A DNA stretch of 30,260 nucleotides from a virus. Shown piece by piece: positions 1-30,260 of the stretch. The position numbers and the translations under genes were made by a program. How positions within the stretch are numbered: the stretch's first letter is position 1; each line of letters begins with the position of its first letter. The stretch is taken from UHGV virus genome UHGV-0035817. One strand, written 5' to 3'. The notes under the pieces are model-generated. The model made no database searches. It had not been told where the DNA came from and worked only from the letters and a program-made list of their open reading frames with translations.

Positions 1-91
1 ATTGATTCATAAATACTCCCGCTATCAACTGACGCTAGTATAACGGAAGCAAATCATCTGCAATGCATTAAGCAGCAAGCAAATTGAGGAT

Positions 92-135
92 AAAAAAAAC
101 CCCCACATCATGTGGGGGAAGACAGGGATGGTGTC
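92..135. repeat. attL core: 44-bp direct repeat identical to 30187-30230
   Basis: Exact repeat AAAAAAAACCCCCACATCATGTGGGGGAAGACAGGGATGGTGTC at both ends of the phage gene block; contains hairpin CCCCCACAT/ATGTGGGGG next to an A8 run (a T-run terminator on the minus strand). Confidence 0.85.
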
Positions 136-183
136 ACAAAAAAGCACCTAACCTGATGATATAAATGGATTTATATCAAACGC

Positions 184-202
184 TGTCCACATAGCGTCCA
201 CA
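184..202. promoter_or_regulatory. Putative integrase arm-type binding sites (tandem TGTCCACA octamers), left arm
   Basis: TGTCCACATAGCGTCCACA; a near-identical 19-mer occurs at 30083-30101 just inside attR. Both lie in phage DNA flanking the core, as expected for tyrosine-integrase arm sites. Confidence 0.5.
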
Positions 203-212
203 TCGATTACCG

Positions 213-250
213 AAAGCCCCAAGCATATGGGGCTTTATTTTTTTCTTTTT
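213..250 (+). terminator. Rho-independent terminator (AAGCCCCA-loop-TGGGGCTT followed by T-rich run)
   Basis: GC stem and TTATTTTTTTCTTTTTT read directly. In the excised circular phage it would lie downstream of int across attP. Confidence 0.6.
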
Positions 251-297
251 TTAGATGTATAACACTTACTCAACCCAATGTTTATTAAGGATTTTCT

Positions 298-705
298 ATG
301 GCAACTCTTAAATCAATAATGGCAATAACCACCTTAATAATTTCACTCAATGCATACGCAAACACGAATGACATTAAAACTCTTCAAAAACAACTGAAAC
401 CATGGCAACCACTAGAAATCACAGCAAAAGATAGCTCTCTTACCGTTGTTCTCCCTGGTAAAAAAATCACATCTGAAGCCTATAATCATTTAATTATGTC
501 CGGTGTATGCACCCCACTTTGGACACATGACGCTCCTTCTTCATTTTTAAAAAATGTAAGTGAAATCAATATAGTTAACCAATATAAGTCTATTGGATAT
601 ACCTTTGAAGACCCATTGACCACATGCAATGAAATCGCTCCTTTAATGGAAAAACCTGCACAAACAGTGGTGTTATCCAAAACTCATACCTACACAGGTA
701 AGTAA
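298..705 (+). CDS. Hypothetical secreted protein (135 aa), accessory gene between attL and ogr
   Basis: ORF with N-terminal signal-peptide-like segment (MATLKSIMAITTLIISLNAYA then NTND), two Cys; visibly AT-rich versus phage backbone; flanked by hairpin terminators on both sides; no P2 counterpart that I recognise. Confidence 0.6.
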   Translation: MATLKSIMAITTLIISLNAYANTNDIKTLQKQLKPWQPLEITAKDSSLTVVLPGKKITSEAYNHLIMSGVCTPLWTHDAPSSFLKNVSEINIVNQYKSIGYTFEDPLTTCNEIAPLMEKPAQTVVLSKTHTYTGK

Positions 706-28314: not shown

Positions 28315-28587
28315 TCACAACCCCATCCACAAAAGCCATGCATCACGCTGTTCAACCGGTCGGTTATAAAACGCCTCACGTACAGCGCGATTAAACTCAG
28401 GAATGAAAACCCATTTTTCACCGGCACGAGCCTTCGGTTTGCAAGGATCACGCAATTCAATAATTGGTAATTTATTTGCCTTCACCATTTCACTGACGGC
28501 TGTCTTTGGCTTCCCTAATAAATCAGCAAATTTATCCACATGAACCGCATCAAGCGGATACTGAATCACATAATTTTCAGCGTCCAT
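28315..28587 (-). CDS. cox: Cox excisionase / early repressor of Pc (about 90 aa)
   Basis: ...GKPKTAVSEMVKANKLPIIELRDP...RAGEKWVFIPEFN...RDAWLLWMGL resembles P2 Cox; start chosen at MDAENYV (GAGGG RBS); upstream ATG at 28602 is possible. Confidence 0.8.
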   Translation of the reverse strand: MDAENYVIQYPLDAVHVDKFADLLGKPKTAVSEMVKANKLPIIELRDPCKPKARAGEKWVFIPEFNRAVREAFYNRPVEQRDAWLLWMGL

Positions 28588-28723
28588 ATATGGTACCCTC
28601 ATAGGATCCAGCCCTTTCTAAACCACTCAAAACCGTTTAGATGCTGGTTTATTCTCAAATCAATGGAACCTATATAGGTTCCAGTTTTGAGGGAATTTAG
28701 TCCCTATATAGGCACCATGTCAA
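28588..28723. promoter_or_regulatory. Immunity switch region with putative operators (two copies of palindrome CCTATATAGG at 28669-28678 and 28703-28712)
   Basis: Direct repeat of a 10-bp palindrome between divergent C and cox; the first sits inside an 18-bp perfect palindrome GGAACCTATATAGGTTCC. Confidence 0.55.
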
Positions 28724-29017
28724 ATGAAATTAAGCGAAAAGATTAAGGCCTTGCGTGAGGCTGAAGGGCTAAGCCAATCAAAATTCTGTGAAATCATAGA
28801 GTTACCGCTAAGCACACTTAAAAAATATGAAGGAGGAAACTTTGAACCCGGTGGCACAGCTTTGCTAAAAATCACTATGCATCCCACATTCCAAAAATAT
28901 GCTCTATGGCTTATGACAGATAAAACCGCGCCGGACGCAGGACAAATCGCACCGGCTCTCGCGCACATTGGGCCAGAGTCAACAGAGTCCAACCACTCCG
29001 CGAAAAGGATTGGCTAA
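28724..29017 (+). CDS. C: Immunity repressor C (97 aa)
   Basis: ...FQKYALWLMTDKTAPDAGQIAPALAHIGPE... closely resembles the C-terminal half of P2 C as I recall it. Confidence 0.85.
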   Translation: MKLSEKIKALREAEGLSQSKFCEIIELPLSTLKKYEGGNFEPGGTALLKITMHPTFQKYALWLMTDKTAPDAGQIAPALAHIGPESTESNHSAKRIG

Positions 29018-29086
29018 CTCTATATAAAGATTACATTTTCACCATTTGCTACCAAGATGGTGAATACAGCGCCGGAGGGCTTTCTT

Positions 29087-30067
29087 ATGGCAATTAAGAA
29101 GCTCGATGATGGTCGCTATGAAGTGGACATTAGACCTCGCGGTCGCGACGGAAAACGCATCCGCAGGAAATTCGAAAGAAAAGCTGAAGCACTAGCATTT
29201 GAGCGATACACAATCGCCAATGCCAGTCAGAAAGAATGGGGAGGCCAGCGAGCAGACCGCCGGACTTTGAGTGAGTTGCTGGACATCTGGTGGAAATATC
29301 ACGGGCAAAACCACGAGCATGGAACAAAAGAGTTTAATCATCTACTCAAAACCATCAGCGGCATAGGTGATATACCAGTGAGCAGGATGAGCAAAAGGGC
29401 TTTGATGGATTATCGTTCCATGCGACTACGTGATGGTATCAGTGCCGCAACGATAAACCGTGACATGTACCGATTATCCGGCATGTTCACAAAATTAATT
29501 CAATTGGATGAATTTTCCGGGCAACACCCAATTCACGGACTGCCGCCACTGGCGGAGGCCACCCCTGAAATGACGTTCCTGGAAAAAGCAGAAATCGAAA
29601 AACTGTTAAATGTTTTGGCTGGTGATGACTTACTTGTCGCGCTTTTATGTCTGAGCACCGGAGGAAGATGGACGGAAGTTGCCACGCTAAAACCAGCACA
29701 GATTACAAATTGCAGGGTTACCTTCCTGAAAACCAAAAACGGTAAAAAGCGAATCGTGCCGATTTCTGAGGAACTGGAGAAAAAAGTTAAAGAGGAGGCC
29801 AGCGCCAAATTATTCAAAGTTGATTATGAGAAATTTTGCGGGATTTTACGCAGAGTGAAACCTGATATACCACCCAATCAGGCAACCCACATCCTGCGGC
29901 ATACATTCGCAAGCCATTTCATGATGAATGGGGGCAATATAATCGCACTGCAACAGATTCTGGGACATGCGAGCATTCAGCAGACGATGGCCTATGCGCA
30001 CCTTGCGCCTGACTATCTGCAAAATGCCGTCGCTCTGAATCCACTAAAAGGCGGAGTGACGTTATAA
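29087..30067 (+). CDS. int: Tyrosine integrase (326 aa)
   Basis: MAIKKLDDGRYEVDIRPRGRDGKRIRRKF... P2 Int-like N-terminus; C-terminal catalytic region HILRHTFASHFMMNGGNI...LGHASIQQTMAYAHL; start trimmed to ATG with GGAGGG RBS. Confidence 0.9.
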   Translation: MAIKKLDDGRYEVDIRPRGRDGKRIRRKFERKAEALAFERYTIANASQKEWGGQRADRRTLSELLDIWWKYHGQNHEHGTKEFNHLLKTISGIGDIPVSRMSKRALMDYRSMRLRDGISAATINRDMYRLSGMFTKLIQLDEFSGQHPIHGLPPLAEATPEMTFLEKAEIEKLLNVLAGDDLLVALLCLSTGGRWTEVATLKPAQITNCRVTFLKTKNGKKRIVPISEELEKKVKEEASAKLFKVDYEKFCGILRRVKPDIPPNQATHILRHTFASHFMMNGGNIIALQQILGHASIQQTMAYAHLAPDYLQNAVALNPLKGGVTL

Positions 30068-30082: not shown

Positions 30083-30101
30083 TGTCCACATAGTGTCCAC
30101 A
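30083..30101. promoter_or_regulatory. Putative integrase arm-type binding sites, right arm (TGTCCACATAGTGTCCACA)
   Basis: 18/19 identical to 184-202. Confidence 0.5.
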
Positions 30102-30186
30102 CTCAAGAAATTTTGAAACCGCTCCAAACCCTTACAGCTTTCGATAAGTACCTGTTTTTACTTTTGATTGCATGTAAGTAATTGAT

Positions 30187-30230
30187 AAAAAAAACCCCCA
30201 CATCATGTGGGGGAAGACAGGGATGGTGTC
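30187..30230. repeat. attR core: 44-bp direct repeat identical to 92-135
   Basis: Exact repeat; host-like sequence continues after 30230. Confidence 0.85.
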
Positions 30231-30260
30231 TATGGCAAGGAAAACAGGGTTTACTACTGG

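Follow-up and report, generated by a model that had tools for sequence, protein, structure and literature searches.

We conclude that the window, the whole 30,260-nucleotide stretch of DNA that was analysed, is a P2-like prophage sitting between E. coli fieF and cpxP, with its attachment core in the 3' end of the gene for the small RNA CpxQ. Taken as a whole, the following reading is probable: positions 92–250 of the window are the left junction (attL) of a WPhi/L-413C-type prophage in the end of CpxQ, a plus-strand terminator at 213–252 ends the C-int transcript of the circular phage, and integration separates that terminator from the operon it serves. Both the integration site and the position of 213–252 can be read from the DNA itself; from that position, 213–252 would act as the terminator of the lysogenic transcript.

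The host DNA and the two copies of the core are arranged as follows:

1–10, minus strand: start of host fieF (ATG at 10 to 8, MNQ...), assigned from the K-12 locus and E. coli annotations
11–88: host intergenic DNA from the cpxP terminator to fieF, collinear with K-12 except for one SNP
89–135: attL core, the fieF-proximal copy, comprising the last 44 nt of CpxQ plus 3 nt; an exact copy of 30184–30230
92–118, minus strand: orphan second cpxP/CpxQ terminator, with the hairpin running from 118 to 100 and U8 from 99 to 92
30184–30230: attR core, the copy contiguous with cpxP
30244 to 30187, minus strand: CpxQ sRNA, 58 nt, 57/58 identical to K-12 b4716
30254–30260, minus strand: 3' end of host cpxP, with the stop codon TAG at 30256 to 30254

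The two cores form a direct repeat (GATAAAAAAAACCCCCACATCATGTGGGGGAAGACAGGGATGGTGTC, 89–135 and 30184–30230) with 100% identity, 30,095 nt apart, and this exact repeat flanks a complete prophage with a tyrosine integrase near one end, as expected of att sites. The initial annotation had recognized the repeat but described it as a 44-bp core; its exact length is 47 nt. The host intergenic DNA at 11–88 is left intact by the insertion. An A8 run (92–99) and an inverted repeat (CCCCCACAT/ATGTGGGGG, 100–118) both lie within the core. On the minus strand, a terminator scan reported, at the attL and attR copies alike, a hairpin of 8 bp, 6 of them GC, with T8 behind it, in agreement with the earlier proposal that the core holds a minus-strand rho-independent terminator. 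The CpxQ/cpxP terminator has both a GC-rich hairpin and a U-run, and the 58-nt CpxQ stretch folds with a free energy of −17.4 kcal/mol (z = −2.7). In the plus orientation, the core hairpin folds at −18 kcal/mol and has no T-run behind it. The CpxQ terminator at attL faces the prophage, and we infer that it would halt minus-strand read-through ahead of fieF.

CpxQ follows the cpxP stop codon directly and corresponds to the gene annotated as cpxQ in K-12 (b4716), the sole difference between the window and K-12 being a position in the loop of the hairpin. Nucleotides 1–14 of CpxQ are host-only DNA, and nucleotides 15–58 lie inside the att core. Alignment of the flanks to the uninterrupted attB of K-12 identified the host gene as cpxP/CpxQ, with fieF on the other side, and the flank matched annotated fieF or cpxP in 5426 of 5426 E. 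coli genomes. The suggestion that the phage had integrated at the 3' terminus of a small RNA or host gene on the minus strand is thus borne out, the target being CpxQ, in the 3' UTR of cpxP. Since the core overlaps CpxQ, it does not lie in an intergenic region devoid of a transcript, the finding that would have spoken against that suggestion.

CpxQ is an RNase E-processed, Hfq-dependent 3' UTR sRNA of the Cpx envelope stress response, and its conservation exceeds that of every other part of cpxP (PMC9438474). WPhi and L-413C have one attP core and an attB at a single MG1655 coordinate, and a matching attB is absent from all Yersinia genomes (Nilsson and co-workers, PMC3448106). In E. coli W, 'cpxP-fieF' is the site of prophage Wphi1 and 'cyaR RNA' that of a P2 prophage (PMC3032704), and phage HQ103, which has this int, does not integrate in Y. 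pestis, staying extrachromosomal in strain EV76 (PMC10321612). The att site of the window is therefore that of WPhi and L-413C, and is already published. Our literature search found no paper tying CpxQ to a phage attachment site. The WPhi attB was reportedly the subject of a paper by Karlsson in 2006, and CpxQ was described in 2016, ten years later than the mapping of the WPhi site. The published WPhi/L-413C site 'between cpxP and fieF' is the CpxQ terminator, and the prophage boundary is fully explained by it.

Unoccupied attB is present in related hosts, namely K-12 and ~4630 E. coli genomes. The attR junction (int-P'-core-cpxP) was found in 793 of 5426 complete E. coli genomes and the attL junction (fieF-core-P-arm) in 787–790 of the same set, corresponding to occupancy of the cpxP-fieF site in ~790/5426 genomes, or ~15%. 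A 36-nt segment of the core is conserved in 117 species-representative Enterobacterales genomes, among them Klebsiella, Citrobacter, Enterobacter, Kosakonia and Salmonella arizonae, and a prophage junction signature accompanies it in 6 of these 117. P2-like prophages appear to use the CpxQ site outside E. coli too. The use of a conserved RNA sequence as a broad-host attB is common to integration into RNA genes generally and into CpxQ (PMC3333887, PMC9438474).

We observed arm-type repeats adjoining the CpxQ core in six loci (L112, L151, L161, L187, L195 and L209); the non-E. coli taxa concerned include Yokenella regensburgei, Citrobacter meridianamericanus and Escherichia sp.

The phage genes and attachment-site elements of the window are:

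121–135: GACA-GGGATGG-TGTC, in which 7 nt separate the two 4-nt halves of an inverted repeat; a candidate for the Int core site and overlap region
136–184: attP P-arm spacer, matching in position the IHF-binding segment of P2, with the shared motif GGATTTAT
185–202, plus strand: Int arm-type sites of the P arm, two direct GTCCACA repeats 11 nt apart
213–252, plus strand: predicted int-direction intrinsic terminator, with a hairpin at 213–236 and a T-run at 237–252
298–705, plus strand: cargo ORF of 135 aa (phrog_3807), with no Pfam match and a hydrophobic N-terminus
722–745: bidirectional hairpin AAAGCCCCTCGACTGAGGGGCTTT, identical to the ogr/F-operon terminator hairpin of P2
756–1037, minus strand: ogr, the late-gene activator (Ogr_Delta); the annotated gene of relatives is a 219-nt inner ORF
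28315–28602, minus strand: cox
28724–29017, plus strand: immunity repressor C, first gene of the Pc (lysogenic) operon
29057–30067, plus strand: int, a tyrosine integrase of the L-413C/WPhi type (Pfam Int_N and Phage_integrase)
30084–30101, plus strand: Int arm-type sites of the P' arm, two GTCCACA repeats

The genes C, int, cox, ogr and D are all of P2 type. Across int and C, identity to L-413C, P2_AC1, FSL SP-004 and others is 99%, and the 47-nt core and its arms are identical in the attP of the free phages L-413C, P37 and WPhi. The sequence GTCCACA-N4-GTCCACA occurs exactly twice in 30 kb, flanking the core, with both occurrences on the plus strand (0.03 expected). Read across attP, the order is int stop codon, P'-arm repeats, ~80 nt, core, ~50 nt, P-arm repeats and terminator, the same as in the annotated P2 record, which lists P' arm, Cox sites, core, IHF site, P arm, terminator and ogr. 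By their position relative to P2 only, the two spacers would be Cox and IHF sites; the IHF consensus WATCAANNNNTTR has a partial match, judged by eye, in 136–184. Recombination at this site, presumably Int/IHF/Cox-dependent, is known here from natural recombinant junctions. The relatives of Int in IMG/VR comprised 80 loci (L011–L090), mostly ending 3 nt past the int stop codon and containing no attP; the terminator comparison makes no use of them. In the IMG/VR contigs, the P' arm, core and attR had been trimmed off by prophage-boundary prediction.

The polymorphic loop position (108 in attL, 30203 in attR) allowed us to follow the origin of each core. The window, all free phages and 117/117 species have T here (A in the RNA), and K-12 and ~20% of the unoccupied E. 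coli genomes have G (C in the RNA). Queries for the attL allele that include a long host flank are confounded by the linked SNP in the fieF flank; hence, we used a query consisting of the core and the P arm. The G version of this query gave 100% full-length matches in M217, 4/2-1, H9Ecoli, AR435, 219, ESY002 and others. A query consisting of the P' arm (window-type only), the core with G and the cpxP flank detected no attR with G, and the strains with G at attL differ from this query by exactly one base. We also read the junctions of E. coli M217 directly: its attL pairs G with the K-12-type SNP of the fieF flank, and its attR has T. Arithmetic on summary counts, which yields an estimate rather than a direct count, gives ~154 lysogens with G at attL, an estimated frequency similar to that of G among unoccupied genomes.

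Since these lysogens have the host allele at attL and the phage allele at attR, strand exchange occurs to the right of position 108, within CATGTGGGGGAAGACAGGGATGGTGTC (109–135 of the window), a 27-bp interval bounded on one side by the hairpin loop and on the other by the core end nearest cpxP. The sequence GACA-GGGATGG-TGTC falls inside this interval and may represent the Int core sites and overlap region. With an attP-derived loop allele at attR, the working CpxQ gene of these lysogens is phage DNA from its loop through the 3' stem half to the U-run, and lysogeny of G-type hosts turns the working copy of CpxQ into the phage allele. The idea that the phage restores the host 3' end is supported by these junctions, with K-12-type lysogens keeping the host allele at attL and having the phage allele at attR. 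In about one of every seven E. coli genomes, phage DNA supplies the CpxQ terminator.

On the plus strand, the hairpin at 213–236 (AAAGCCCCAAGCATATGGGGCTTT) has 9 pairs, 5 of them GC, and is followed by ATTTTTTTCTTTTTTT up to 252; the tail reported for it by the scan is ATTTTTTT. It folds at −14.8 kcal/mol (z = −3.2 relative to shuffles) and has the sequence of an intrinsic terminator, so that the plus-strand terminator previously placed at 213–250 is predicted here too, at 213–252. Terminator-like sites are abundant in this part of the window, with 6 in positions 1–1200 against 0.9 expected from shuffles. The terminator lies just beyond the P-arm Int sites, at the start of the variable cargo (~207). 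In the circular form, a transcript that leaves int meets no terminator before this one, ~240 nt after the stop codon. The free genome of Yersinia phage P37 is contiguous through int, P' arm, core, P arm, the same terminator and the same ORF, which places the terminator just downstream of int across attP, as had been anticipated. From the int stop codon to the core, hairpins ahead of T-runs reach −2.8 kcal/mol at best, and a scan from 28600 to the end of the window found no plus-strand terminator. With none predicted between int and the core, the claim that integration separates int from its likely terminator holds. A promoter scan of positions 1–545 on both strands found no sigma-70-like promoter.

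In the window, P37, L-413C, WPhi, P2, 186 and 10/10 sampled lysogens, the first terminator met in the int direction comes after the P arm, and its hairpin starts 7–16 nt after the last arm repeat in every relative examined. P-arm homology among E. coli lysogens ends at window position 205/206, and the DNA beyond is variable cargo, which falls into three classes:

Class A: ogr directly adjoins the P arm; hairpin AGCCCCTCAACTGAGGGGCT with tail ATTTTTGTG, bidirectional; found in lysogens L091–L095 and L097, as in WPhi and L-413C
Class B: cargo ORF on the plus strand; hairpin AAAGCCCCAAGCATATGGGGCTTT with tail ATTTTTTTC, unidirectional; found in the window, P37 and 44 genomes
Class C: a different cargo gene, on the minus strand; hairpin AGCGTCCGTTTAATCGGACGCT with tail TTTAAATTT, unidirectional, in the int direction; found in M217 and AR_451

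A diverged version of class B, 86% identical, is present in ~27 further genomes, and one such variant (L098) keeps the terminator stem. The class C terminator points in the int direction only, although the neighbouring gene is on the opposite strand. The hairpin sequences of the three classes are unrelated. That three unrelated hairpins occupy the same place and have the same predicted role argues that C-int termination just past attP has been selected, and that ending the lysogenic transcript there would be under selection in P2-like phages. In the prophage, there is no transcription toward these terminators, because the adjacent fieF gene runs the other way. Consistent with a role in the lysogenic operon, the GenBank record of 186 annotates a 'predicted terminator of lysogenic operon' across the attP core from int. 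In P2, the shared hairpin has a weak int-direction tail (CTGTTTGTA) and is annotated solely as the ogr/F-operon terminator; the class A hairpin could be there for ogr alone. The arrangement with a terminator past attP is common to P2-like phages, and not special to this prophage.

Yersinia phage P37 and 44 E. coli genomes share the cargo ORF at 298–705, ~27 more genomes have it at 86% DNA identity, and it is absent from L-413C, WPhi and P2. It has no predicted promoter upstream and is bracketed by hairpins with the same stem, at 213–236 and 722–745. The shared stems suggest that the cargo ORF inserted at an ancestral bidirectional hairpin, duplicating the hairpin in the process. The corresponding slot next to the P arm of M217 (L009, 306–1251; also in L096) holds a gene on the opposite strand for a 213-aa hypothetical protein (WP_000416606.1). 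In M217, an IS150 copy follows this gene, and the prophage measures ~38 kb between its att sites.

The phage recombines with the last 44–47 bp of the cpxP transcription unit, that is, the 3' part of CpxQ including the terminator. attP brings a full copy of the terminator, such that cpxP/CpxQ at attR ends in a functionally identical, phage-supplied terminator, and the second copy stays at attL, beside fieF. In the mechanism that we propose for the circular genome, the transcript from Pc (C-int) would cross the P' arm, the core and the P arm and most likely end at 213–252, and this termination would keep it out of the cargo gene and ogr. Integration would shift the 213–252 terminator 30 kb away, to attL. 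With that terminator lost, and with no U-run behind the core hairpin in the int direction, the C-int transcript of the lysogen would have no intrinsic terminator and would exit via attR, antisense to CpxQ/cpxP, until stopped by Rho or by decay; we found no good intrinsic terminator on the strand antisense to cpxP. This model predicts termination at 213–252, plus-strand transcription across the core and transcription from attR into cpxP. It is doubtful that antisense read-through from the constitutively active Pc, in ~15% of E. coli, also measurably dampens or rewires the CpxP/CpxQ arm of the stress response and lowers the level of Int in the prophage. If true, antisense C-int RNA over CpxQ would be a route from a very common prophage to envelope stress signalling.

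We considered whether 213–252 might instead be part of a moron cassette, having arrived with the ORF at 298–705 as an insulator with no role for int. The terminator lies in the variable segment that starts at ~207 rather than in the conserved attP, it is found only with this ORF (the 44 genomes, the ~27 diverged ones and phage P37), and its stem is that of 722–745, as if the cassette had inserted into, or duplicated, an ancestral hairpin. However, phages that lack the ORF have an int-direction terminator at the same place, as does class C, where the cargo is on the opposite strand. Moreover, the only upstream plus-strand transcription to be insulated against is that of C-int across the circular attP, so that the moron reading, which we consider unlikely, overlaps with the best explanation, termination of the C-int transcript at 213–252. 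A different proposal is that the P arm (136–212) and 213–252 together specify a small plus-strand RNA, or that a CpxQ-like chimera is made from the minus strand, ending at the attL terminator. Each strand does have a terminator with ~60–120 nt of non-coding sequence upstream. Nevertheless, the promoter scan of 1–545 was negative on either strand, 136–212 is taken up by the arm-type sites and the IHF-equivalent attP spacer, and there is no Rfam match besides the CpxQ locus itself, all of which make such RNAs highly improbable. Both candidates, the P-arm sRNA and the CpxQ mimic at attL, were dropped because 136–297 has no promoter on either strand.

The initial annotation had likened the arrangement to sib-type and split-operon control. 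As a switch of this kind, loss of the element on integration would lower Int and add to the non-inducibility typical of P2 prophages. The geometry is as such a switch requires, the element lying across attP from int, and is conserved across the family. P2 prophages reportedly express int poorly, a phenomenon that Bertani is said to have termed 'split-operon control' in 1970, and mRNAs without a 3' terminator hairpin are generally less stable; both points would fit a switch. By contrast, the structure at 213–252 is a plain 9-bp terminator hairpin and not an extended RNase III substrate, and no other strong structure is predicted upstream of the T-runs 3' of int. The sign is also the opposite of that expected: lambda sib acts negatively in the non-integrated state, whereas a terminator here would stabilise the int mRNA of the free form. 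In addition, the core hairpin (−18 kcal/mol) is in the 3' UTR of int in both states and could block a 3' exonuclease in either. As for split-operon control, int is not parted from its promoter: C and int adjoin each other in the same orientation and the switch region precedes C, such that Pc stays with C-int and integration splits off the 3' end alone. Neither comparison is supported, and a regulatory switch of either type is very unlikely. Control of the lysogenic operon has been attributed to repression of Pc by Cox, which explains in print the low level of P2 Int (PMC3936717). The changed 3' end may still affect Int levels.

The closest known systems are the Peduovirus members WPhi, a coliphage, and L-413C, a phage of Yersinia and E. 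coli, which have the identical 47-nt core, arm repeats and P and P' arms, and occupy the site between cpxP and fieF (PMC3448106, PMC3032704). The int gene of L-413C is 99% identical to that of the window. What sets the window and P37 apart is an insert that separates the P arm from the ogr hairpin and consists of the 135-aa ORF and a separate terminator; WPhi and L-413C have a single bidirectional hairpin for both directions. P2 belongs to the same family and has the same attP layout, and its core likewise overlaps the terminator of an Hfq-dependent sRNA (CyaR, locI). In P2, the core is 27 nt long, takes in no more of the CyaR hairpin than its loop, its 3' stem half and its T-run, and is co-oriented with int; in the window, the core is 47 nt and includes the entire hairpin, and CpxQ is opposite to int. 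In 186, the terminator of the cI-int operon also lies across the attP core from int and is separated from it by integration, and the core also restores the 3' end of a host RNA gene. 186 differs in its tRNA-Ile target, in its arm sites, in having a dedicated terminator apart from tB, and in having orf69 after int in the lysogenic operon. Lambda sib resembles the element of the window in being a cis element past attP that is linked to int in the non-integrated genome only, but it is an RNase III processing site that destroys the anti-terminated PL-int mRNA, whereas the window has an ordinary intrinsic terminator. Integration in the 3' end of tRNA, tmRNA or sRNA genes (e.g. sdsR in Salmonella) likewise relies on a phage copy of the 3' end to keep the host RNA gene intact (PMC3333887). 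The target in the window is a 3' UTR-derived sRNA processed from an mRNA, as opposed to a free-standing RNA gene. Against this background, the new points are modest: CpxQ is recognized as the target, the crossover is narrowed to 27 bp, and every cargo variant has a terminator in the int direction.

Two further features of the window were seen in passing. The switch region between cox and C contains a perfect 20-nt palindrome (TGGAACCTATATAGGTTCCA, 28664–28683) that the scan flagged as terminator-like; it is possibly an operator. Rfam gave no match in the window at gathering thresholds, and at relaxed thresholds the sole signal was Hrs1 (RF02628, Hfq-regulated sRNA 1), with no CpxQ family on the correct strand. 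Hrs1 matches 30187–30260 on the plus strand, antisense to CpxQ, and also L001 1316–1388 on the minus strand, with scores of 45 and 41 bits (E ~1e-7) that are below the gathering score of 56.4. The RF02628 model begins with A7 and then a hairpin, much as a terminator would when read from its complementary strand; the family may have been built from the CpxQ locus in the wrong orientation.
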